Assembly: GCA_964017835.1 (NCBI GenBank)
Contig: CAXHMP010000004.1
Span: forward strand, 1 to 38,448
Direction of reading: 5' to 3'
Length of the DNA stretch: 38,448 nucleotides
DNA from: an uncultured Alphaproteobacteria bacterium
GTDB taxonomy: Bacteria; Pseudomonadota; Alphaproteobacteria; Rs-D84
Each line of letters starts with the position of its first letter. Within the stretch, counting starts at the first letter, position 1. Shown here in pieces: positions 614 to 32,989 of this stretch. The position numbers were made by a program, and so were the translations under genes. The notes beneath the pieces are model-generated. The model was not told the origin of the DNA. It did no database searches and was given only the letters and a program-made list of their open reading frames with translations.

Positions 614-1183
614 TTAATTATTCCGATAAACGCAACGGAATCCGTATTCGCGCATGGTGGCGCCTTCGGCCTCTATCCGATGGTCAAAGAACGGTGTCGG
701 ACGCATGACGTCAAACGACGGATTGTCATAGACCATCACAATGCTGTCGGCGTTGCGGCCACAAACGCGTTTCATTTCATAGTCGGCAACCTTGGCCAAT
801 ATGGTGCGGGCGTCACCGTCGATGTCCATGCCGTCCGCGTTCTGCATCAGCCGCAGGCGCATTTCGCGCAGGTCGGTGTTGCCCAATAAAATCTGGACCC
901 GGACCATGGCGCCACGGTATTCCTGCCACCGGGTTTCCATGCGAGCCGTATTCCAACGGTTGTTGTTTTGTTCCTTTTCCGCGGGGGATTTGGGTTTGTA
1001 TGAATCAATGTTGGCGTATTGGTTATCAGGTTGCATAAATCCGCTGGTGCGTTCATTGTACAGCGGGGCGTCGACGCCACCCTGGGCAAAGTCGGTGGTG
1101 TTGTATTCCCCGTCATCCGTGTTGACACAGCCCCCCAGCGCCAGCACAGCGCCCATAATCCCGCAAATGGTTGATAATTTCAT
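614..1183 (-). CDS. Hypothetical lipoprotein
   Basis: The 208-aa ORF is trimmed to the internal Met giving MKLSTICGIMGAVLALGGC (signal peptide plus lipobox). I recognised no family. Confidence 0.55.
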   Translation of the reverse strand: MKLSTICGIMGAVLALGGCVNTDDGEYNTTDFAQGGVDAPLYNERTSGFMQPDNQYANIDSYKPKSPAEKEQNNNRWNTARMETRWQEYRGAMVRVQILLGNTDLREMRLRLMQNADGMDIDGDARTILAKVADYEMKRVCGRNADSIVMVYDNPSFDVMRPTPFFDHRIEAEGATMREYGFRCVYRNN

Positions 1184-8798: not shown

Positions 8799-11030
8799 AT
8801 GAGTAAAGAAATTATCGAAAACATTGATTCACAACAGTTGGCCGACGCGTTGTCGGAACGTTATCTGTCTTACGCGGTCAGCACCATTGTATCGCGTGCG
8901 TTGCCCGATGTACGCGACGGGCTAAAGCCGGTGCATCGCCGTATCCTGTATTCCATGTTGCGCCAGAAATTGTCCCCGGCGGCCGCGTTTCGCAAATGCG
9001 CCACAGTCGTTGGTGACGTGTTGGGGCATTATCACCCCCATGGTGACAGTTCGGTCTATGACGCGATGGTGAGACTTGCCCAGGATTTTTCCGTGCGCTA
9101 TCCGTTGATTGACGGCCAGGGGAACTTTGGAAACATAGACGGTGACCCCCAGGCGGCATATCGTTATACCGAATCCAAAATGACCGATGCCGCCATGTTG
9201 ATTATGGAGGGATTGGACGAAGACAGTGTCGATATGATGCCGAACTTTGACGGCACCACGGTTGAACCCATGGTTATGCCGGGGGCGTTCCCGAATCTGT
9301 TGGCCAATGGGGGAATGGGTATCGCCGTGGGGATGGCAACGAATATTCCGACGCACAATGTGGCGGAAATTTGCGATGCGCTGAATCTGATTATCGACCG
9401 GCCGGATGCCACAACCGCCCAGATTATGAAAAAGTTAATTGGGCCGGATTTCCCGACGGGCGGTATTTTAATCGACAGTTTTGATACAATTGTTAAAAAT
9501 TACGAAACCGGACGCGGCGCGTTTCGTGTGCGGGCAAAATGGGAAGTCGAAGACCTGGACCGCGGCGCGCAACAGGCGGTCATTACTGAAATTCCCTATG
9601 GCATCGTCAAATCCAAACTGGTGGAACAAATCGCCGGGTTGATTGATGCAAAAAAATTGCCGCTGGTGGATGACATTATTGATGAATCCACGACCGATGT
9701 GCGTATTGTCATCACACCCAAAAGCCGTAATGTCCCCATGGATAAAATGATGGCGCATTTGTTCGCCATGACGGATTTGGAATCGCGGTTCAATATGAAC
9801 ATGAACGTGATTGATTCCAATGGGGCGCCCCGGGTCATGGGGATTGGCGATGTACTGCGCGAATTTGTCGCGCACCAGAAAAACGTCTTGCTGCGGCGGA
9901 CGAATTGGCGGCTGGGCAATATTGCGCGGCGGTTGGAAATTTTGGACGGGTTGCTGATTGTGTATCTGAATCTGGACCGCGTGATTGAAATTATCCGCAA
10001 CGAGGATGATGCCAAGGCTGCACTGGTTGCCGAATTCAAACTGACCGATGTCCAGGTCGAAGCGATTTTGAACACACGCCTGCGCAGTTTGCGCAAGTTA
10101 GAGGAAATGGAAATTCGACGCGAAGATGCCGAATTGCGTGCCGAACAGAAACAGTTAACGGATTTGTTAAACAGCGAGGCCATGCAAAACGACCAATTGC
10201 GTGCGTGGTTTGCTGATATTAAAAAGCGGTACGATAAAAAAACAAATCTGGGGCGGCGTCGCACTGCCTGGGCCGAAGATACCCAAGAAATTGTCGTCAA
10301 CGCGGACGAATTTATTGAAAAAGAACCCTTGACGGTAATCTTGTCCACGATGGGATGGGTTCGCGCGGCCAAGGGACACCTGGATTTGAACAGTTTGGAT
10401 TTAAAGTTCAAAGAAGGCGATGAATTGCAATCTGCGTTCCATGCCATGTCGACTGATAAAATCAACCTGTTTACGTCGGGCGGAAAAATGTTCACGTTGG
10501 GGGCAAACGATTTGCCGTCGGCGCGCGGATTTGGTGAATCGGTGCGTATGATGGCCGATATCGGGGCGGACGAAAATATTGTGCGTGCGTTCGTGCTGGA
10601 TACGGGGGCAAAGTATCTGTTGGTGGGACGGCACGGAAACGGATTTATCGTGTCCGGTGAAAATTGCGTCGCCCAGACCCGAAACGGTAAACAGGTTATG
10701 AATGTCGATGCCGCCAACCCCGCATTGATGTGCGTGCCGGTGACCGGTGACACGGTGGCGATGTCCGGGTCGAATGATAAACTGTTGATATTCGCAACCG
10801 CGGAAATTCCGGAAATGACCCGGGGCAAGGGTGTCATTTTACAAAAATACAATGCCGACCGGACATACGTGTTGGATGTCATGTTCTTTGACGCGGCGGA
10901 CGGATTCGGATGGACCACGGGGCGCGGCACAACCAAATTGGATGACTGGGCGCCATGGCGGGGCAAGCGTGCATCCCAGGGCCGCACCATCCCGGTCGGT
11001 TTCCCACGCAGTGGAAAATTTGGCAAATAA
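8799..11030 (+). CDS. parC: DNA topoisomerase IV subunit A
   Basis: [26 protein letters not shown] and QAAYRYTE (the family's active-site Tyr motif) match GyrA/ParC. A length of about 743 aa without a long GyrA-type tail favours ParC. Start is at MSKEI. Confidence 0.88.
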
Positions 11031-11035
11031 TAAAT

Positions 11036-11057
11036 CCGCCCAATCGGGCGGTTTTTT
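11036..11057 (+). terminator. Intrinsic terminator of parC
   Basis: CCGCCC-AATC-GGGCGG is followed by TTTTTT. Confidence 0.75.
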
Positions 11058-11067
11058 CTTAACCTCT

Positions 11068-11591
11068 TTAACCCAGCAGGCGGACAGTAGTGGGGATGCG
11101 GCCAGTGCAGCGACGTTGTGTTTACAGTTACCCTTGGTATTAGAGGGTGTAGGCGGGATAGAGAACTATAGCGGGGGCCGCCGAACATCATATGATCCGT
11201 ATTCAGTTGCGCGTGTAATAGGTTGGAGTGCATCGAATGACGATTTGACAAGTCTGATGGACAAGCGTACCGAGATAAAAAAGGATGATATGTTAACGCG
11301 CACAGTATGGGCGGCATGGTCAGCAGAAGATAGAATTTGTCATGTATATGGAATAGATAAATATTGCGGCAAGGATTCCGAAGTCGCAAAACGGATGAAG
11401 GTTGATAGGGAATATAATAACGCCAGAAAAGAAGCAATACGTACAAATTCCCTGGTTGGACGATTGGTGGGTGGGCCGATTGGTTCTGCAATCGGGGCGC
11501 TGCAATTGGCGCGCTGGTCGGTGCCTTGCGCAAGCCAGAAGATTCCTATGTTTGCCGTCAAGAGGAATGGAAGAACGAAGTACCGATGTGA
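11068..11591 (+). pseudogene. Promoterless, start-less, frameshifted inverted copy of the 3' end of the Cys-rich gene at 12333-14924
   Basis: It translates to LTQQADSSGDAASAATLCLQLPLVLEGVGG..RTVWAAWSAEDRICHVYGIDKYCGKDSEVAKRM. The parent has LTQQADSSGDASSAATLCLQMPLVIEGVGG..DKICHVYGIDKYCGKDSEVAKRM. Positions 11068-11422 are about 90% identical at DNA level to the reverse complement of 12986-12632. The tail (GAAIGALVGALRKPEDSYVCRQEEWKNEVPM*) continues in another frame and lacks most of the Gly/Ala-rich anchor. Confidence 0.7.
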
Positions 11592-11636
11592 TACAGCAAC
11601 GTGAAAATCCGTTTTAATTATGATATAATTTCATTT

Positions 11637-11945
11637 ATGAAAAAATATCAATTTTATGTTTATATTATGTTTAATAAACGTAACGGAACCTTGTATATCG
11701 GCGTTACAAACGATATCGTTCGACGGGTTTATGAGCATAAAAATAAAATCATCCCAAATTCTTTTACCGCGCAACATAATTGCAGTAAATTGGCATGGTT
11801 CACAGATTTTCAATATGTAAATGATGCATTGGAATATGAAAAAAAATTGAAAGCCAGTAATCGCGCGCGAAAAATTTCTTTGATTGAATCTATCAATCCA
11901 GAATGGTTGGATTTGTCTCAAGAAAATATGTTTTGGGTTAGATAA
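11637..11945 (+). CDS. GIY-YIG nuclease family protein (UPF0213-like)
   Basis: YVYIMFNKRNGTLYIGVTNDIVRRVYEHK is the GIY-YIG motif block. EYEKKLKASNRARKISLIESINPEWLDL is the typical C-terminal part. Start is at MKKYQF; the ORF opens at GTG 11601. Confidence 0.85.
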   Translation: MKKYQFYVYIMFNKRNGTLYIGVTNDIVRRVYEHKNKIIPNSFTAQHNCSKLAWFTDFQYVNDALEYEKKLKASNRARKISLIESINPEWLDLSQENMFWVR

Positions 11946-11988
11946 AAAACTATTATATTATTAAATAAGGAGTTTATACATTATATTA

Positions 11989-12141
11989 ACTGGATTGCCA
12001 CGGGTGCCGGCCCCGCTTTGCTCTGCCGTCACCCTCGCAATGACAACAGTGCTTTATTTCCTGGAATATTAAGCCTCTGTGTCATCGCACACCAGGTCGT
12101 CCATCACCAGTGTGATGGCGACCGCAGCGTGGCAATCCAGT
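11989..12141. repeat. Imperfect 153-bp palindromic element made of two inverted TGGATTGCCACG...GC(A/G)ATGAC units
   Basis: The 14-bp termini ACTGGATTGCCACG (11989-12002) and CGTGGCAATCCAGT (12128-12141) are perfect inverted repeats. An inner hairpin is CCATCAC-CAGT-GTGATGG. A third degenerate unit ending GTGCAATGACAAC sits at about 12175-12232. Confidence 0.6.
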
Positions 12142-12255
12142 GAATAAAAAAGGATACATCATATTTAATATTAATTGTATTGCATTGCCTGCCTGTACGG
12201 TTGTAATAAACGGTATTGTGTGCAATGACAACATAAATTGAGAACCAAAAAATTC

Positions 12256-12296
12256 AAAAAAAGGGCGAGTGGGTCGCCGATGGAACCCGCCCGCCC
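12256..12296 (-). terminator. Intrinsic terminator of the Cys-rich protein gene
   Basis: A GC-rich minus-strand hairpin (GGGCGGGCGGGT...ACCCACTCGCCC) is followed by U7. Confidence 0.7.
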
Positions 12297-12332
12297 ATCC
12301 CGACTGTATATGGTCTCAGCCGGGAACGTAGT

Positions 12333-14924
12333 CTAGCCCTGGTTATCACCCATTTGTGTTTCGGTATGCCATTCGCGTTCACGACAAACATACGGGTCTT
12401 TCTTTTTTGTAAATATTGCCGCCAATGCCGAACCAATAACAAGAGCGCCAGCCGCGGCCCAGCCTGCAACAGGGATTGCCGATAGAAATGGTGCGGCGGC
12501 TAATGCGGCATACCCAGCACCCCAGGCGGCCCCCGTTGATGCTAGTACAGCGGTACCAATCGCGCCTGTTGTGACTGCGGCGCCAATTCCCGCCCCGACC
12601 GCGGCATTAGTTGCGAAATTTTTTCGATAGTTATCATCATATTCTTTATCAACTTGCATCCGTTTGGCGACTTCGGAATCCTTGCCGCAATATTTATCTA
12701 TCCCATACACGTGACAGATTTTATCTTCTGCTGACCAGGCCGCCCATACTGTGCGCGTTAACATATCATCCTTTTTTATCTCGGTACGCTTGTCCATCAA
12801 ACTCGTCAATTCATCATTCGATGCACTCCACCCTATGACACGCGCAACTGAATACGGATCATATGATGTTCGGCGGCCCCCACTATAGTTCTCTACCCCG
12901 CCTACACCCTCTATCACCAACGGCATCTGAAGGCACAACGTCGCCGCGCTGGACGCGTCCCCACTACTGTCCGCCTGCTGGGTTAATTCTGTTAAGCGAC
13001 CATTATAGTGGCGTTGCGCACGTAACAATCCGCTTTGGGTAATCACCAGACGATACGGATTCATGACCGTCGGATAACGCGCGTCGGTTTGTTCGTCGCG
13101 GCCGGTAATCTGGCTAAGGTCACGACCGCGGGTACACATCTGTAATTGCGGGTCGGACGTGTAAATGTTCAACACCGCGTCAATGGATGCCTGGATGGTT
13201 TCCAGTTCATCACGCACGCGGTCGATGATGCCCGAAACGTTGCCATACTTGGTATCATTCGGGGCCTGGCGCACGCGGTCGATATATCCGTCAATATCAA
13301 TTTTTCCCGCCTGGGGGTATTTGGCGTCACAGTCTTCGTTGCCGGCCTGCATACATTTGGCCCATTCTTCGCCGCCGCTGATTTTCAACAGGTCAAAATT
13401 AATCAAGCCCGATATGATATGTTGATTTCCGACTTTTTGATAGGCCAATGAATTCGCACCGACATATTCCTGGGTATCATAAGCGGCACAGGTTTGCGTA
13501 TCGCCGCAGATTTCAATCATGTAATCGCGCGCGCGGTTCAGGCAAAAATCCCGTTGTTCATTATCAATGTTCATATACACCGACATGGTAATGTCATCCA
13601 AATCTTCGATTGAAAAATTCGGATTTCCCTGGCGGCAGACGACCAATTTTTCCAGCGGACACATTTTGTGTAATGCGTCCAAATCCAGACCCAAACAGGC
13701 CCCAAAGTCCGCCCCGCACGCGTTGTCCGCGGTTAGGCAATTGTGAACTTCGGATGTGCAGGCATCGGGAAACATCCCCGCCAATTTACGGCGCGCTTCG
13801 TCCCAAATATTGGGAACAACGCTTTCACAGCGTTCGATTTCGATTTTACAAAAACTGCGTGCCATGTCCGGATACGCCAGGCATGAATCCATTGTCGCCG
13901 TGCCGGTTCCGGCGATGTCATCGCGACAGGCACGGACAATGCACTGGGTAACACTGTCCCAGCAGCCGGTGCGGAAATCTGATTCATGGTGTGTTTGTGC
14001 AACGGTCAGTTCGTTTTTAATACTGGCCAAAAAGGCGGGATAAACCTGGTCCCGGACATCAGTACAACTGTCCAGAACCGATGCGCACATGTCGGATTTG
14101 CGCGCCATGATTTCATCTGTCGTTTCCGATGCCGTCGGCATACATTCACCCCAATCCGCCCCGCAGACACCGTCGGATACAAAGCATTCATGATAGGCGA
14201 TGATACATTGGCCCAAATCATATTTGTTTGCCGCGCGATAGGCATCCAGGGCCGCCCCTTCTATTTCAGAACGTGCCGCCGTTCGTGCGTTGGCCAATTC
14301 TGTGCGCCGGGCCTTGATACTGTTTTGATAGGCCAAGCAATCGGATTTTATCGTTTGATTGTACAGCAGCGTCAGCATGTCCATATTGGCGTCACATTTG
14401 GCATCCAGACGGTCGCGGCACAATTCATAGGCCGCGTTTAATTTACGCCGGCCCGTCAAATCGCCAATTAATATTTCATCATCCCCGTCGTCGTCAGATG
14501 TTGTTGGTGTGTTAAAGACATCCAATGACACGCGGGATTTTTTTTGTAATGGTTCAGATTTCTGGGACGCCAATTTTTCAACGGCTGGCGTGGTTTCAAT
14601 TGCATTGATGGTGGCCATGGTGCGGGATTCTAAACGCTGAATCTGGTCATCAATTTCACGCCATTGGGTATCGTATTTTTCGCCGTCGTCCGAACAGGTA
14701 CAGCGCCCGCCGTTGGCATTGTCCATTAAACAAAAGGTGTCCAAGCATCCAAAAAGTTGTTCCTGGCAGTCCGAAGGGACAGTGGATTGCGTGCTTTTTT
14801 TTGCGATGGTTGTTCCCGCATTGATAGCCGAAACGGTGTTTTTGGTCGCGGCCGCCGCCCAAGCAACGTCTTGGACAAATATGATGCCAATCAAAAGGCG
14901 TGCAACAATGCGCAGCAAAGACAT
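12333..14924 (-). CDS. Large secreted Cys-rich protein with a C-terminal Gly/Ala-rich membrane anchor; family unknown
   Basis: The signal peptide is MSLLRIVARLLIGIIFVQDVAWAAAA. I counted about three dozen Cys, including the twice-repeated motif CGADWGEC / CGADFGAC. The C-terminal segment GAGIGAAVTTGAIGTAVLASTGAAWGAGYAALAAAPFLSAIPVAGWAAAGALVIGSALAAIF is glycine-zipper-like and hydrophobic. Confidence 0.75.
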   Translation of the reverse strand: MSLLRIVARLLIGIIFVQDVAWAAAATKNTVSAINAGTTIAKKSTQSTVPSDCQEQLFGCLDTFCLMDNANGGRCTCSDDGEKYDTQWREIDDQIQRLESRTMATINAIETTPAVEKLASQKSEPLQKKSRVSLDVFNTPTTSDDDGDDEILIGDLTGRRKLNAAYELCRDRLDAKCDANMDMLTLLYNQTIKSDCLAYQNSIKARRTELANARTAARSEIEGAALDAYRAANKYDLGQCIIAYHECFVSDGVCGADWGECMPTASETTDEIMARKSDMCASVLDSCTDVRDQVYPAFLASIKNELTVAQTHHESDFRTGCWDSVTQCIVRACRDDIAGTGTATMDSCLAYPDMARSFCKIEIERCESVVPNIWDEARRKLAGMFPDACTSEVHNCLTADNACGADFGACLGLDLDALHKMCPLEKLVVCRQGNPNFSIEDLDDITMSVYMNIDNEQRDFCLNRARDYMIEICGDTQTCAAYDTQEYVGANSLAYQKVGNQHIISGLINFDLLKISGGEEWAKCMQAGNEDCDAKYPQAGKIDIDGYIDRVRQAPNDTKYGNVSGIIDRVRDELETIQASIDAVLNIYTSDPQLQMCTRGRDLSQITGRDEQTDARYPTVMNPYRLVITQSGLLRAQRHYNGRLTELTQQADSSGDASSAATLCLQMPLVIEGVGGVENYSGGRRTSYDPYSVARVIGWSASNDELTSLMDKRTEIKKDDMLTRTVWAAWSAEDKICHVYGIDKYCGKDSEVAKRMQVDKEYDDNYRKNFATNAAVGAGIGAAVTTGAIGTAVLASTGAAWGAGYAALAAAPFLSAIPVAGWAAAGALVIGSALAAIFTKKKDPYVCREREWHTETQMGDNQG

Positions 14925-21233: not shown

Positions 21234-21394
21234 AAAATCCCCCCACCGCCCAGGGGCGCGATGAAAGCCACCGCGTTTTCATTGTCCATTCCCCCGTTGT
21301 CTGCCCACATTAATACATCATTGCTGTGGGAATGGACACGGGGGATTTTTATTTCCCGCTTGCGATTCCCCCGCAATTAGAATATAATAATGAT

Positions 21395-21546
21395 GCACCG
21401 GGTGATACCCGATGTGGGGTGTAAAGGCCTCCTTAGTAACAAAAAACTCCAACACGGGTTGGAGGGTCGTGATATATTAAAATAAACGACACTATTACTA
21501 AGTAGTCTTTAACCTCCAACCGCCCTTCATCACGGCGGATTTTTTA
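21395..21546 (+). ncRNA. Candidate structured sRNA, copy C of the family (inverted relative to copy A)
   Basis: TTGCGA (21360-21365), a 17-nt spacer and TATAAT (21383-21388) precede it. Helices are TAAAGGC+CTTAGTAA with TTACTAAG+GTCTTTA, hairpin CTCCAAC-ACGG-GTTGGAG and GTCG/CGAC. Terminator CCGCC-N9-GGCGG plus T6 lies at 21520-21545. Confidence 0.55.
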
Positions 21547-27884: not shown

Positions 27885-28106
27885 GTGAACAAGTTTATCA
27901 AGGGTGGGTTCTTGGCCGGAAAAAGGACATACATTGTTTCCGGTATTGGAATTTTATCAGCCGTTGGGGCGTATTTGGTGGGCGATGCCGATATATTTGG
28001 CATGTTACAGACTATCTTTACGCTGGGCGGTATTTATTTCTTGCGCAAGGCAAGTGAAAACAAAGGGGAAGAAAATGGAAAACATTCCAGAAAAATTTCT
28101 GAATGA
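27885..28106 (+). CDS. Small membrane protein, holin-like (GTG start)
   Basis: VNKFIKGGFLAGKRTYIVSGIGILSAVGAYLVGDADIFGMLQTIFTLGGIYFLRKASENKGEE has two hydrophobic segments and a charged tail. AAGGAAA precedes the GTG. It lies directly after the hydrolase. Confidence 0.45.
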   Translation: MNKFIKGGFLAGKRTYIVSGIGILSAVGAYLVGDADIFGMLQTIFTLGGIYFLRKASENKGEENGKHSRKISE

Positions 28107-28731
28107 AGATGGAACGCTGAACACGGATGCGCTGATGAAATCGTATTCGGAATTGGAAAAGAAAATGGGGGCAATGATTTCGGTGCCGGCCGATGATGCA
28201 GACGCGGCCGCGCGTGAAAAATTCAATCGTGCCATCGGTGTTCCCGGCAGTGCCGATGATTATCCAAAAGATTCGATATTTGATGATGAAAATGTGCGTG
28301 CGAAATTTCTGGAAATTGGTTTGACATCAAAACAGGTGGAAAAAATTTATAAAATTGCCGAAGAATTTTTGTCGCCGGTCTTGGGACAAATTTTACAATC
28401 CCAGGATGAAGCCCAGGCGATGGCGGAATTGGAAAAGTTTTTTGGCGGTACGGATAAAATGAACGATGCATTAAATGCAATTAACACGTTCGGTGAAAAA
28501 TTTTTACCGGCCGATGCGTTTGATGCGCTGTGCGCCACACCCCAAGGAATCCAAAGCATGTACAAGATGATGCAATCAATGGAACCGGATGTTAAAACGG
28601 ATAAAAGCGCCATTGAAAATTTAAGTGATGCAGATTTGCGACGCATGATGCGTGACCCAAAATATTGGCGTGAACACGATGCGGAATACGTGCGAAAAAT
28701 TGAAAACGGTTTTAAAAAATTATATTCATAA
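28075..28731 (+). CDS. Putative capsid scaffolding/assembly protein
   Basis: MENIPEKFLNEDGTLNTDALMKSYSELEKKMG...DDYPKD is acidic and helical, a pattern I associate with podovirus scaffold proteins. It lies upstream of the capsid gene. The ORF opens at 27904; it is trimmed to the Met after AAAGGGGAAG. Confidence 0.5.
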   Translation: MENIPEKFLNEDGTLNTDALMKSYSELEKKMGAMISVPADDADAAAREKFNRAIGVPGSADDYPKDSIFDDENVRAKFLEIGLTSKQVEKIYKIAEEFLSPVLGQILQSQDEAQAMAELEKFFGGTDKMNDALNAINTFGEKFLPADAFDALCATPQGIQSMYKMMQSMEPDVKTDKSAIENLSDADLRRMMRDPKYWREHDAEYVRKIENGFKKLYS

Positions 28732-28845
28732 GAAAAATCGTGCGAAAAAATCACTTTCTTCTTTACTAATTTTTCTGTTTTAGATAAAATATAAATCAAG
28801 AACAAAAAAATTTGTTCTATCCAAAAACAGGAAAAGGAGAGAAGA

Positions 28846-29195
28846 ATGGCATTCACATTCTTGAAACCGGCCGCCAAGAAAGTCGCTGCGAAACCCGCCG
28901 CGAAACCGGCCGCAAAGAAAGTTGCTGCGAAACCCGCTGCGAAAAAAACCGTCGCGAAAAAAGCCGCGGTGAAACCGGCGGCGAAAAAAGTTGCCGCGAA
29001 ACCGGCCCGCGGAAAACAGTGCGGTGAAACGGCAGCGAAAAAACCGGTCGCCAAGAAAAGTCCCGCGACCGGCCGCCAAAGAAACCGGTCGCCGAAATAA
29101 AGCCCGGCGAAAAAAAACGGTGCGAAGAAGCCCCGGCCAAGAAACCTGTTGCGAAAAAAGCCCCGGCGAAAAAACCGGTCGCGAAAAAAAGATAA
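28846..29195 (+). CDS. Lys/Ala/Pro-repeat (histone H1-like) basic protein; repeat coding switches frame near 29060
   Basis: The first frame gives MAFTFLKPAAKKVAAKPAAKPAAKKVAAKPAAKKTVAKKAAVKPAAKKVAAKPA.. and stops at 29100. The same repeat type (PPKKPVAEIKPGEKK..APAKKPVAKKAPAKKPVAKKR*) continues in another frame to 29195. An AAGGAGAG SD and a terminator at 29198 are present. Confidence 0.5.
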
Positions 29196-29197
29196 TT

Positions 29198-29226
29198 AAA
29201 TCCCCGCGTTTGCGGGGATTTAATTT
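29198..29226 (+). terminator. Intrinsic terminator after the KAP-repeat gene
   Basis: AAATCCCCGC-GTTT-GCGGGGATTT is followed by a T-rich tail. Confidence 0.65.
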
Positions 29227-29510
29227 AGGGGAAATACATGTGCCGTTTTTTATCAGCATCGATTTGTAAATTAAATTGATATACATGTCGGTCATTAATC
29301 ATGTATGTCACATTGATTTGTTGGGTATAGATTGTTCAAAGTTATAAATTGAATTGTTTTTTTTGATAAAGCCTTCAGTCATATTGGTGCAATGTCGGTG
29401 TGACTGAATTTTTTATTATAAAAAAAATTAATGGAAAATCCCATCGCGGACCCATATTTGGATTTGTCCATCGGGCGCGAGCAAACCGCATAACCCGTCG
29501 ACAGATTTTT

Positions 29511-29538
29511 GCGCCACTTGTATGGGGCGCTTTTTTTT
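29511..29538 (+). terminator. Terminator-like hairpin immediately upstream of the capsid gene RBS
   Basis: GCGCC..GGCGC is followed by T8. A further hairpin TTCAGTCA/TGACTGAA plus T6 lies at 29374-29414. Confidence 0.45.
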
Positions 29539-29560
29539 AACAACAAAAAAAGGAATGTTT

Positions 29561-30382
29561 ATGTCTGTTTCAATAGACCAAGTCTTCGTAAAGCAATTCG
29601 AAGCGGATGTCCATTTGGCTTATCAGCAGATGGGTACCAAGTTGCGTGCAACTGTGCGCAGCAAATCTGGTGTTGTCGGTGCATCGACAACTTTCCAAAA
29701 AGTAGGCAAGGGCGTTGCCAGCACCAAGTCTCGCCATGGGATTGTGCCGGTGATGAACCTGAATCATGAACCGGTGGAATGTCTGTTACAGGATTATTAC
29801 GCCGGTGACTGGGTCGATGCGTTGGATGAATTGAAAATCAATATCGATGAACGTCGTGTTGTGGCGTCGGCCGGCGCGTATGCGTTGGGACGCAAAACCG
29901 ATGAACTGATTATCAAGGCCATGGGCCAGGCCACCGTTGATGCCGGTGATTATTCAACAAAACTGACCAAGGACTTGATTCTGACGGCGGTTGAAAAGTT
30001 GAATGAAAAAGATGTTCCCGATGATGGACGTCGTTTCGCAGTTGTCGGTGTTCAGCAGTGGAACCAATTGTTGGAAATGAGTGAATTTGTCTCCGCCGAC
30101 TTTGTGGGTGATGCCAATCCGTTGGTGAACGGGTTTGAATCCAGAAAATGGTTGGGCATTACATGGGTGTTGCACAATGGTTTGCCGGTTGATGGGGCGA
30201 ACCGCGACTGTTTTGTCTATCACGCGTCGGCTATCGGTCATGCGTGTGGCCAAGAAGTCAAATCGGACATCACATGGCATGGTGAACGTGCGGCACACTT
30301 TATCAGTAACAGTATGTCCCAGGGCGCTGTTTTAATCGATGGCGATGGTATTGTGCGCGTCAAATGCAAAGAAAATGCATAA
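29561..30382 (+). CDS. Putative phage major capsid protein
   Basis: It is about 273 aa. FVKQFEADVHLAYQQMGTKLRATV...AYALGRKTDELIIKAM resembles capsid proteins of small podoviruses as I remember them. It lies between scaffold-like and tail genes, and an AAAGGAA SD is present. Confidence 0.65.
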   Translation: MSVSIDQVFVKQFEADVHLAYQQMGTKLRATVRSKSGVVGASTTFQKVGKGVASTKSRHGIVPVMNLNHEPVECLLQDYYAGDWVDALDELKINIDERRVVASAGAYALGRKTDELIIKAMGQATVDAGDYSTKLTKDLILTAVEKLNEKDVPDDGRRFAVVGVQQWNQLLEMSEFVSADFVGDANPLVNGFESRKWLGITWVLHNGLPVDGANRDCFVYHASAIGHACGQEVKSDITWHGERAAHFISNSMSQGAVLIDGDGIVRVKCKENA

Positions 30383-30407
30383 GGCAAGATAACAAAAGGA
30401 AATATAA

Positions 30408-30662
30408 ATGGCTTTTCAAAATAAAAATTTGTCTGTTATCGCGTATGCTAATGGTTTCACGCTGTGGCATTACAGCGCGGACGAAAAATTATCGGTTATC
30501 GAAGCGCATGGATATTTTAATAATGTCAAAACGCTGATGAACATCGGTGACATTATTATCATCAATGGGTCTGATAATACCGCGATTAAAAAAATCAATA
30601 TTACCGAACCGGGTAATGTGACGACACAGGGACTGGCGGCCGGCACGGCGGCGGCTGAATAA
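30408..30662 (+). CDS. Small phage structural-module protein (84 aa), unknown function
   Basis: MAFQNKNLSVIAYANGFTLWHYSADE... follows tightly after the capsid gene, with an AAAGGAAA SD. Confidence 0.55.
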   Translation: MAFQNKNLSVIAYANGFTLWHYSADEKLSVIEAHGYFNNVKTLMNIGDIIIINGSDNTAIKKINITEPGNVTTQGLAAGTAAAE

Positions 30663-30687
30663 TCCAGGCGTCATGTAATCGCATGGT

Positions 30688-30717
30688 GGGGCGGTGTTTT
30701 TCATCGCCCCGTTTTTT
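30688..30717 (+). terminator. Intrinsic terminator
   Basis: GGGGCG-N11-CGCCCC is followed by GTTTTTT. Confidence 0.6.
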
Positions 30718-30740
30718 ACAAAAATATACAGGATTTTTTC

Positions 30741-31259
30741 ATGCTTACCAAAATTGATTTATGTTCAATGGCATTGTTGAAACTGGGCGAGGCACCCATT
30801 CAATCAATGACCGATGATACCGCGGCCGCACAATTGGCGCGAACATTGTTTGATCCAACAATTGAAACTTTGTTGGCCATGCATCCGTGGCGGTTTGCAT
30901 GTCGTATGTTTGAACTGAACAAAAATACAGACCAAAATTTTCAAATTCCGGCCGAAGTGCTGCGCGTGTTGAAATGCGACGGCCAGGTTATCGGGGACCG
31001 TGTTATCGCGCCGGGAAAAACGCTGCGGATGTGGGCGATTGTTCGCCAGAATGTTGAAAACTTCCCCAGTTATTTCGTGTCACTGGCGGTGACCAAGTTG
31101 GCGATGGAATTTTGTATCCCGTTGGTGGGGGAACAGAATATTTTGCGCATGCTGATTGCGCTGTATGAATCCGAAATGCAGGCCGCCAAGTTTATCGACA
31201 GCACCATTTCAATTAATCCAAAAATTGATGATTTTTCATTAATCAGTTCGCGTTTCTAA
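30741..31259 (+). CDS. Tail tubular protein A (T7 gp11)-like adaptor
   Basis: DLCSMALLKLGEAPIQSMTDDTAAAQLARTLFDPTIETLLAMHPWRFA parallels T7 gp11 VNDILASIGEPPVSTLEGD..A..A...L......IQSRGWTFN. Confidence 0.55.
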   Translation: MLTKIDLCSMALLKLGEAPIQSMTDDTAAAQLARTLFDPTIETLLAMHPWRFACRMFELNKNTDQNFQIPAEVLRVLKCDGQVIGDRVIAPGKTLRMWAIVRQNVENFPSYFVSLAVTKLAMEFCIPLVGEQNILRMLIALYESEMQAAKFIDSTISINPKIDDFSLISSRF

Positions 31260-31276
31260 AAATAAAGGATGACATA

Positions 31277-32989
31277 ATGGGGAATTTTATCAAAACGCAA
31301 AATTCATTTGCAAATGGTGAAGTCGCGCCAGAATTCTTTGCACGCGAAGATATTAACGGCATGTCGCGATTGGAAAACATGGATGTGTTGACCGGGGGTG
31401 GTTTGGCACGTCGGCGCGGGTTGGCGACGGTCGCAAATCTGGGGCGGGATGCGCGGTTGATTCCGATGACGGTTGCGGAAAATGAAAATTATCTGTTGGC
31501 GGTGGCGGCGGGTCATATATACATCTTTAAAAACGGCCAGAAAATCCAAGATTTAATTGCGCCGTGGTCGGTCGACGCGTTACAGAAATTGCAATATGCC
31601 CAACGGTTCGACACAATTATATTTGTTCATCCCGATTACCAGCCCCAGGTGTTGTCCAAAAATGGTGCGATGTTCAAACTGAATGTATTCAATTTTACCG
31701 TCAGTGATGATATGGATGTTTATATTCCGTTTATGAAGTTTGACGACGCCAGTGGTATCAAAATTTCCGTCACAACCCATTCCAATGGAAACAATTACGC
31801 GACATTTACAACCAGTTCGGCGTTTTGGACGCCTGAAAATGTCTTGGGGCGTGTCTTTTTATTAGGACGCCAGTGGCGGATTGCCGAATATGTCAGTCCG
31901 ACTGTTGTTGTCGCAATGACCAATGGTCAATGGAATTTGCCGTCGGGGCCGGTGTCCGACTGGTCCGAAGCCGCGTTCGGAACACGACGCGGGTGGCCGT
32001 GCAGTATTTCATTCCACCAGGACCGATTGGTGTTCGGCGGGTCGCGGTCATGGCCCAGTGGGGTGTGGATGTCCAAAGTTGGCCAGCACCACAACTTTGA
32101 TGCAGGTACCGGATTGGATGACGAGGCCATCTTTTTAACCCTGTTGTCCGAACAGCGTCAGCAAATCTGTACCGTGGTCAGCAGTGATAATCTGCAAATT
32201 CTGACGTCGGTGGGTGAATGGGCGATTTCCAGCAAGCCGCTGACGCCGTCCGCGGTTGATATCAAACAGCATACCGCCGTCGGCAGTGTGGCATCGCGAT
32301 ATTTGCCGCCGCAAAAAATCGAAGGCTGTACCGTCTTTATTTCCAGCAGCAAGAAAGATATTCGCGAATTGGCGCTGGACGAATTGGGGGTCAATTACAA
32401 TGCCAATGATTTGTGCGCATTGTCCAAACATTTGATGCAAGGGCCGGTGGATGTGGCCTATAACGAAGAAACGCATCAATTGTTTGTGGTGTTGGAAACG
32501 GGGGATATTGCCGTTCTGAATAAAAATTCGGCGTTGGGTATTGCTGCGTGGGGATTGTACAAAACCCAGGGAACGTTCAAGTCTGTGGCGGTTATGGACG
32601 GCGAAACGTATGTTGTCGTTGAACGTGGAAACGCAATCGGGATTGAAAAATTTTCGGACCAGGCATTAAATGATGCCGGCTCATACGGATTTTCGTACAC
32701 GGCGTCCGCGTTACCAATGTTAAGTGGCAAGCATACGCCCAAAAGAATTCGAATTCGTAAAATTACCGCGCGCGTGTTAAAGACAAAATCTGTCTTTATC
32801 AATGGTGTGCGCGCCCCCATTCCCAACGATGTCCAATTGCCAGATTCACCAGGCTTTACCGGCGACGTGACAATCAATTTGTTGGGGACGGCAATCAATA
32901 CCATTGACCCCATGTGGACAATTCACGGCAGTGAACAAATGCCTGCAACAGTCTTATCCGTCACCATGTACGGGTGGTATTTAATCTAG
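31277..32989 (+). CDS. Tail tubular protein B / nozzle-like protein
   Basis: The N-terminal pattern QNSFANGEVAPEFFAREDINGMSRLENMDVLTGGGLARRRG is typical of podovirus nozzle/stabilisation proteins as I remember them. It is 570 aa and lies directly after the gp11-like gene. Confidence 0.5.
   Translation: MGNFIKTQNSFANGEVAPEFFAREDINGMSRLENMDVLTGGGLARRRGLATVANLGRDARLIPMTVAENENYLLAVAAGHIYIFKNGQKIQDLIAPWSVDALQKLQYAQRFDTIIFVHPDYQPQVLSKNGAMFKLNVFNFTVSDDMDVYIPFMKFDDASGIKISVTTHSNGNNYATFTTSSAFWTPENVLGRVFLLGRQWRIAEYVSPTVVVAMTNGQWNLPSGPVSDWSEAAFGTRRGWPCSISFHQDRLVFGGSRSWPSGVWMSKVGQHHNFDAGTGLDDEAIFLTLLSEQRQQICTVVSSDNLQILTSVGEWAISSKPLTPSAVDIKQHTAVGSVASRYLPPQKIEGCTVFISSSKKDIRELALDELGVNYNANDLCALSKHLMQGPVDVAYNEETHQLFVVLETGDIAVLNKNSALGIAAWGLYKTQGTFKSVAVMDGETYVVVERGNAIGIEKFSDQALNDAGSYGFSYTASALPMLSGKHTPKRIRIRKITARVLKTKSVFINGVRAPIPNDVQLPDSPGFTGDVTINLLGTAINTIDPMWTIHGSEQMPATVLSVTMYGWYLI

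Follow-up and report, generated by a model that had tools for sequence, protein, structure and literature searches.

Introduction

As an inverted and 5'-truncated copy of the 3' end of a gene, standing silent beside the gene itself, the element described here raises a simple question, namely whether such a copy is the leftover of a duplication on its way to decay or a partner retained for exchange with the expressed gene. It is found in a stretch of 38,448 nt from an uncultured gut alphaproteobacterium (hereafter, the window), where it lies between parC and a gene on the minus strand (12333-14924) encoding an 863-aa Cys-rich protein, which is endowed with a signal peptide and belongs to an uncharacterised family. 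Reading the window from its letters alone (hereafter, the sequence-only reading), it had been proposed that the copy was a silent 3' cassette, which could provide the expressed gene with a shorter alternative anchor. This proposal is partly supported by the comparison with other strains, where the orphan cassette is conserved and selectively constrained, and the cassette is not a decaying scar or duplicate. That it further acts as a conserved, silent alternative-tail cassette recombining with the expressed gene is the reading put forward here, to which about an even chance is given.

Architecture of the inverted copy

The two copies form an inverted repeat, the arms of which (11058-11418 on the plus strand and 12636-12996 on the minus strand) are 361 nt long, align without gaps, share 325/361 positions (90%) and lie 1217 nt apart (pairwise blastn, E = 4e-120). 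No other long repeat of this kind was found near the locus in a repeat search, and tblastn of the 863-aa protein against the 38-kb window found only one extra copy. The inverted repeat of about 90% identity announced in the sequence-only reading is real, only its coordinates (11068-11422 and 12632-12986) being a few bases off. In the expressed gene, the second arm (12636-12996, minus strand) corresponds to codons 644-764 and is followed by a long tail (12333-12635, minus strand), composed of a low-complexity linker rich in Ala, Gly, Ser and Thr, then a membrane helix, and closing with KKKDPYVCREREWHTETQMGDNQG ahead of the stop codon.

On the other side, the orphan cassette starts at the first base after the intrinsic terminator of parC (11036-11057, plus strand), which consists of the hairpin CCGCCCAATCGGGCGG (11036-11051) and a T run. 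Its shared block (11058-11421, plus strand) reproduces codons 644-764 as a 5'-truncated copy, in frame, with the frame of the plus arm open over 120 codons. Then comes a short alternative tail (11422-11591, plus strand) without a linker but with a single hydrophobic helix, ending in YVCRQEEWKNEVPM and a stop codon; the unique part of the orphan amounts to 51 aa, i.e., the hydrophobic helix and the short tail. In the window, this tail is out of frame because of a 14-nt insertion (around 11497-11510), which the alignment with related strains identified as private to the window, and the shifted frame ends in RKPEDSYVCRQEEWKNEVPM with a stop codon at 11589-11591. No conserved start codon was found on the orphan cassette and no promoter-like site between parC and 11337. 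The start directly behind the parC terminator, the lack of a start codon and of a promoter, as well as the shorter tail in a shifted frame, had all been described in the sequence-only reading and are found again here.

Conservation and constraint of the orphan cassette

The relatives compared throughout are short-read metagenome contigs, several of which have a coverage of 1-4x. Five short contigs from five samples (L002-L006) were retrieved by a search with the repaired cassette (protein cluster P0121-P0124), and eight further ones (L015-L022) by exact look-up of the GIY-YIG protein encoded between the two arms; all thirteen originate from the same species as the window. Other searches were negative, namely (i) a degenerate MLTRTVWAAWSA pattern scanned over the JGI metagenome and GTDB genome collections had no match, (ii) the search for related loci with the whole 863-aa protein had no match, and (iii) the search with the C-terminal 343 aa of the parent returned no homologue, the low-complexity tail having flooded the candidate list. 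In the flanks, identity among the strains is high, i.e., 98.7-100% for the 3' end of parC, 98.8-100% for the GIY-YIG gene and 98.9% for the gene body upstream of the block.

Considering the cassette itself, the order of parC terminator, block and short tail recurs in each of the five independent contigs extending into parC (L002-L006), where the junction between terminator and cassette is kept as well. Out of 14 contigs, 12 have an intact short tail, with seven distinct intact haplotypes among them; the two exceptions are the window and L004, a contig at 1.2x coverage with a T-rich stretch resembling poor sequence. Respective to the parent block, the copy differs at 36 sites, 24 of which are third codon positions, with a nonsynonymous divergence (dN) of 0.047, a synonymous divergence (dS) of 0.38 and a dN/dS of 0.125 (binomial p = 5e-8 against neutrality); at the protein level, 11 out of 120 residues differ, all conservatively. 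Among cassettes, pairwise dN/dS ranges from 0.03 to 0.17 in the block and from 0.06 to 0.31 in the short tail, the variable sites of which are distributed as 9/2/16 over the three codon positions (p = 0.007). A never-translated stretch could not show such a pattern of codon positions and dN/dS. An intact tail at low dN/dS is also the reverse of the random inactivating mutations by which, in the sequence-only reading, a decaying duplication was to be recognised.

Such a constraint could be explained by an independent small gene, the cassette then encoding a tail-anchored protein of 147-162 aa selected for a function of its own. Gene callers did predict open reading frames at this place (P0121-P0124), the frame is intact with a low dN/dS, and an in-frame ATG is present at the 5' edge in L002 and L003. 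The called starts differ by strain, though, with no conserved start or ribosome-binding site, and the cassette sits directly behind a strong terminator with no promoter-like site; lacking a signal peptide, the product would retain in the cytoplasm a Cys-containing domain that is otherwise exported, and selection is detected upstream of the first conserved in-frame ATG as well. Altogether, a small gene is distinctly unlikely. A fusion of ParC with the cassette by read-through or frameshifting, which was also envisaged, is ruled out by a double stop and the terminator, and by an in-frame stop ahead of the cassette in L005.

The 5' edge of the cassette is found in three versions among strains; in L004 it reaches 18 nt further into the gene-body homology, and in L002 and L003 the first ~45 nt are missing. 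The ancestral cassette was therefore longer and its 5' edge is unconstrained. Around the distant family members P0003, P0010 and P0127, which are single-copy, no orphan cassette was found within 10 kb. P0129 was considered as an orphan and rejected, being a partial gene at a contig edge. An exhaustive representative search gave one further orphan, in a second species (L011, 943-1290), i.e., a 115-aa fragment of the same block that starts at PLLLEG, ~25 codons into the block, after an unrelated divergent gene on a short contig.

Recombination between the two copies

Between strains, the block is 90-96% identical (4-10% different) and the tail shows 5-15 mismatches in ~156 nt, whereas the flanks differ by ~1% or less; the synonymous divergence of the cassette is at least ten times that of the adjoining parC. 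With a diversity so far above that of the flanks, this variation was therefore brought in by recombination and did not build up locally. The hypervariable zone starts right at the parC stop codon, since the linker from this stop codon to the terminator and the loop of the hairpin (11031-11057) already vary there as three haplotypes among L002-L006, with the stem of the hairpin preserved.

At the sites distinguishing the two copies of the window, the cassettes of other strains show parent-type states grouped into tracts (runs test, p = 0.0004 for L006 and p = 0.016 for L005), and the cassette block of L004 is 95.6% identical to the parent block of the window (one nonsynonymous and 16 synonymous differences), i.e., closer to it than to the cassette of the window. 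When block ends and tails are combined, all four combinations occur among the contigs, namely (i) a copy-type end with the short tail, as in the window cassette and others, (ii) a parent-type end with the long tail, as in the window gene, L017 and L018, (iii) a parent-type end with the short tail in L004, and (iv) a copy-type end with the long tail in L016. The last two are recombinant junctions falling at different places in the block, and they are not assembly chimeras because each is contained within a single 31-mer. As all four combinations exist, the two copies recombine. Homogenisation within a genome is further indicated at positions 11184 and 11196, where both copies of the window have a base in common that none of the four other strains compared shows in its cassette. 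As for the tail of the window, at the positions where the tail haplotypes differ it is of the L006 type 5' of the 14-nt insertion and of the L002/L005 type on the 3' side; both tail types contain the 9-mer GGGGCGCTG, in registers 14 nt apart, an arrangement suggestive of a misaligned exchange. Gene conversion between the copies, in whichever direction, is thus shown at the population level from short-read contigs. Of the inversion or gene conversion anticipated in the sequence-only reading, an exchange of sequence between the cassette and the expressed gene is accordingly what is found.

Alternatively, an old partial inverted duplication could simply be tolerated as a passive relic under concerted evolution, the block being kept seemingly purified by occasional conversion from the selected, expressed copy and by homologous DNA imported from other strains, with no adaptive role and without its short tail ever being expressed. 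This is the main rival, and a real but clearly minority possibility. Besides gene conversion, which is evident, it would fit with a 5' boundary eroding differently by strain, a frameshifted cassette in the window and distant family members with no cassette within 10 kb; moreover, no isoform with the long tail next to parC was seen among the contigs. It does not, however, explain how the short tail, for which the expressed gene offers no homologue as a source of renewal, would stay intact in nearly all contigs with changes dominated by third codon positions. Neither does it explain a copy-type block at a dS of 0.38 and a dN/dS of 0.125 from the parent, which conversion by the parent cannot yield.

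A possible inversion of the spacer

In bacteria, general recombination is expected to flip a 1.2-kb spacer bounded by near-identical arms of ~350 bp. In one contig of 1015 nt (L020), 90 nt specific to the gene body (window 13086-12997) run on into the block, the short tail and the GIY-YIG gene, and this linkage is the flipped arrangement that was predicted in the sequence-only reading. As a proof of inversion, L020 was nonetheless downgraded, the repeat being unphaseable in its strain. L020, L019 and L016 are 100% identical in their overlaps and correspond to one strain sequenced in three runs; L019 starts exactly at 11068, the convergence point of the two upstream contexts, and L016 ends 30 nt inside both arms. 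As the two blocks of this strain seem near-identical, with identical stretches of at least 30 nt at both block boundaries, an assembler working at k=31 cannot phase them. The contigs in which the arms are diverged and hence phaseable (the window, L002/L003 and L005) are all unflipped, with the short tail on the parC side, and an exact look-up of partial proteins in the collection gave no further flipped contig.

With such material, it may be asked whether the repeat or its mosaic variants were made by metagenome assembly in the first place, considering the contigs all derive from short reads, are in several cases covered 1-4x only and break at the repeat. This is hardly credible, as the junctions of parC with the cassette and of the cassette with the short tail are found again across independent samples and in the output of three different assemblers, the arms of the window differ about every 10 nt and are hence resolvable, and L006 is collinear with the window over 10923-12230.

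The spacer and its GIY-YIG gene

The presence of a GIY-YIG gene and of palindromes between the arms, stated in the sequence-only reading, was borne out. The gene (11637-11945, plus strand), preceded by a promoter-like site (11601-11629), encodes a single-domain, Ssn-like GIY-YIG nuclease of 102 aa; the match to PF01541 (E = 4e-15) covers residues 6-79 of this protein (residues 18-91 of the 114-aa open reading frame scanned), and no other domain is present. Two inverted hairpin units follow (11981-12149), one on the minus strand (11981-12046) and the other on the plus strand (12081-12149), of the form GTCATYGCGAG...GGCRATCCAGT and with a folding z of -6.7. No domain of a tyrosine or serine recombinase, nor a transposase-like one, was found by Pfam in the spacer gene and 24 other large open reading frames of the window.

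Ssn proteins are single-domain GIY-YIG nucleases, site-specific for single-stranded DNA (94 aa for SsnA), and their genes are flanked by hairpin repeats called SRM/NTS (Chenal et al., 2025, PMC11893778). Judging from sequence, the spacer gene is like them in encoding a single GIY-YIG domain of ~100 aa and in the vicinity of hairpin repeats with GTCAT...ATCCAG-like ends. Unlike the published repeats (PMC11893778), those of the window are far longer-stemmed and, despite similar GTCAT...ATCCAGT ends, the published SRM pattern has no match in the window; the units resemble long-stem variants of Ssn-related motifs. For the GIY-YIG protein, no NCBIfam family and, by sequence, no solved relative was found, and the intron-endonuclease model TIGR01453 reaches 20.8 bits, the cut-off being 56. 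A homing endonuclease of the I-TevI or Seg type was rejected, because the 102-aa protein is a catalytic domain alone, without a DNA-binding domain, and remains below the TIGR01453 cut-off. On these grounds, the gene seems to fit the Ssn family better than homing enzymes.

The spacer is not occupied by the same gene in all strains. The GIY-YIG protein of the window is 100% identical in nine further contigs, and the spacer of L002, L003 and L005 contains a different GIY-YIG gene, 44% identical, on the opposite strand and abutting the stop codon of the cassette. In L005, this type-2 gene extends over 781-1098 (minus strand), with exact matches to the published SRM pattern at 1195-1222 and 1287-1314. 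In L001, from a species where the orthologue is 58% identical, a 71%-identical GIY-YIG gene is located downstream of the orthologue, flanked by the same hairpin units as in the window and in the opposite orientation relative to the long tail. Since near-identical strains harbour two 44%-identical versions in opposite orientations, the GIY-YIG gene is a mobile occupant of the spacer, neither a conserved part of a switch nor the cause of the duplication, and its view as an integral part of the arrangement is not supported.

The sequence-only reading had left room for the copy to be the scar of a GIY-YIG insertion, and a broader version of this idea would consider the duplication as a by-product of nuclease insertion or homing co-conversion, the diversity then resulting from homing-driven import of the flanks. 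A small GIY-YIG gene is indeed found beside the 3' end of the gene in every strain as well as in L001, two GIY-YIG types occupy the same spacer and the tail haplotype (IGSAIG or WGAAIG) partly tracks the GIY-YIG type. The scar is not supported, though, two GIY-YIG types being found in the spacer of otherwise near-identical strains. The broader version is itself very unlikely, as it (i) calls for homing by a catalytic domain alone, far below the intron-endonuclease cut-off and nearer to the Ssn family of single-stranded DNA nucleases, (ii) conflicts with GIY-YIG genes being 98.8-100% identical where the adjacent cassette differs by 5-10%, so that there was no co-import, and (iii) leaves the constraint on the cassette unexplained.

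A model for tail exchange and its weak points

Under the proposal of a silent cassette recombining with the expressed gene, the two blocks would serve as homology arms for general homologous recombination. Without crossover, patches of sequence would move between the copies; with crossover, the 1.2-kb spacer would invert, placing the short tail in the expression site and the long tail on the orphan, with a changed stalk or anchor length as the probable consequence. If expressed occasionally, the short tail would be kept under purifying selection, and such occasional expression would be the simplest explanation of its constraint. The Ssn-like nuclease and the hairpins, as non-conserved parts of the spacer, may raise local recombination. 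A bolder version, where the nuclease and hairpins together constitute a local recombination initiator, is rather unlikely; nicks at extruded hairpins would then be followed by repair between the inverted blocks, and the 3' end would be a programmed hotspot of diversity at which stalk length is toggled or varied, giving a membrane stalk of 0, ~45 or ~80 linker residues. A stimulation of recombination by the GIY-YIG gene at this locus is speculation.

Several elements weigh against tail exchange. There is no recombinase and only one cassette is visible, the tail of which is frameshifted in the window, while its 5' edge varies among strains as expected for an unconstrained end. The differences in the block being mostly synonymous, swapping the block barely alters the protein; only a swap of the tail would matter, and this would need a crossover. 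The 10% divergence between the arms of the window speaks against recombination being frequent in this strain. At the read level, inversion is unproven, L020 being compatible with it but possibly an arbitrary path of the assembler. Finally, the related contigs are all short, many at low coverage, and bulge-popping by the assembler could produce part of the mosaic consensus.

The expressed protein and its family

The family of the 863-aa protein gathers hypothetical proteins of ~820-920 aa, for which source-named members are few and mostly from metagenome-assembled genomes of Alphaproteobacteria or Rickettsiales; the closest relative (P0002) is 58% identical and no match to a Pfam or NCBIfam family was obtained. 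The protein exhibits a predicted Sec-type signal peptide, a C-terminal membrane anchor and many invariant cysteines. An AlphaFold model based on an alignment of 33 sequences (mean pLDDT of 72) consists mostly of long helices and has no fold match in the PDB. In this model, the shared block leads from the last part of a helix (622-671) through a small beta domain (694-748) into the beginning of another helix (749-783), after which residues 778-826 are Ala/Gly/Ser/Thr-rich with a pLDDT below 50, residues 822-838 form a hydrophobic helix and the protein terminates in a small hairpin with Cys. The modelled layout would correspond to an ectodomain followed by a variable linker, a single membrane anchor and a short tail in the cytoplasm; the label of surface protein is not established.

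A long tail is present in all inspected full-length relatives with a membrane-anchor tail (P0002, P0003, P0010, P0032, P0125 and P0127), many other family members having no membrane-anchor tail at all, and the short tail is confined to cassettes among the sequences inspected. The long tail is itself polymorphic in length, with ~33 extra Ala/Ser/Thr-rich codons in L016 (939-1379, minus strand), and in L018 (956-1303, minus strand) it is a mosaic of two long-tail types. The C-terminus, at which the sequence-only reading suggested comparing relatives, is thus variable between strains.

Comparison with known systems

In the R64 shufflon with Rci, the G segment of phage Mu with Gin and the Moraxella pilin with Piv, a dedicated invertase acts on short crossover sites and both orientations are readily seen. 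The present locus is similar in having a constant N-terminal body and an alternative 3' end in the opposite orientation, but the arms here are diverged coding sequences of 361 bp, no invertase is present and the flip itself is inferred. As such, the comparison to a shufflon made in the sequence-only reading fails on the defining features, with neither a recombinase (by Pfam, among the open reading frames of the window) nor short conserved crossover sites. The likening to polymorphic toxins (Rhs or CdiA) does not stand either, the orphan being a hydrophobic helix with a tail and the next gene a GIY-YIG gene, with no toxin/immunity pair.

Segmental gene conversion from silent cassettes is known from pilE/pilS in Neisseria and msp2 in Anaplasma. 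Systems of the vls, pilS or msp2 type rely on many cassettes and change amino acids in exposed loops. Unlike these, the window contains a single cassette and the variation of the block is mainly synonymous (dN/dS of 0.03-0.17). For vlsE/vls in Borrelia, cassettes are described as ~90% identical to the expression site (PMC11499132). The likeness with the silent-cassette systems lies in a nearby promoterless and 5'-truncated copy of ~90% identity, with mosaic tracts common to both copies.

Together with the vls cassettes, the closest functional analogue is hsdS shuffling at the cod/SpnIII type I restriction-modification locus of Streptococcus pneumoniae, where inverted repeats that can be long (298 bp) are located inside the coding sequence, the tyrosine recombinase PsrA drives most inversions and low-frequency recombinase-independent inversions were reported (PMC7096588). 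Like the hsdS locus, the present one has one expressed gene beside a silent inverted partial copy, long coding repeats and an enzyme gene inside; unlike it, where PsrA swaps DNA-recognition domains, there is here no recombinase and a single cassette, and a membrane anchor with its linker differs. With no recombinase, one cassette and mostly synonymous variation in the block, the locus is a member of neither the hsdS-type inversion nor the vls-type conversion systems. The part differing between the two alternatives is the linker and the anchor, not an exposed loop.

Other features of the window

Downstream of the 863-aa gene, a terminator-like hairpin with a T run (12255-12296, minus strand) is conserved in L005 (1347-1400). 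Antisense to parC and the cassette, an open frame of 645 aa (9596-11533, minus strand) is not backed by any family evidence and is in all likelihood spurious. Away from the locus, an inverted repeat of ~200 nt (3-211 and 21342-21545), in three pieces of 77-87% identity and 21 kb apart, holds terminator-like hairpins (AAAAAACTCCAAC..GTTGGAGG) and could represent a dispersed intergenic element. At 27904-32989, housekeeping genes are interspersed with phage-like ones (PF05396, T7 capsid assembly, and PF19821, Phage_capsid_2), with nine overlapping Lys/Ala/Pro-rich coding repeats of the GCNAARAARCCNGCN type (28867-29189) just past the capsid-assembly-like open reading frame. Of note, the PF05396/PF19821 pair is found directly beside the family gene in a distant relative (L013, 7331-9289; L014, 308-907), and the pair suggests a conserved, possibly domesticated, capsid module.

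Biological significance

From the strain comparison, the cassette looks like a recombination partner or a switch rather than junk. In terms of method, contigs from metagenomes can, at the level of strains, tell a silent cassette under selection from a duplicate in decay. The locus is also a natural site for testing whether Ssn-type nucleases and hairpin repeats promote local recombination, and if the initiator view were true, the recently discovered Ssn/SRM system would be involved in a targeted gene diversification that needs no dedicated recombinase. Should the cassette indeed move into the expression site, the result would be a recombinase-free, single-cassette switch which, in poorly known gut Alphaproteobacteria, would alter the membrane tethering of an abundant uncharacterised envelope protein and not an exposed epitope.

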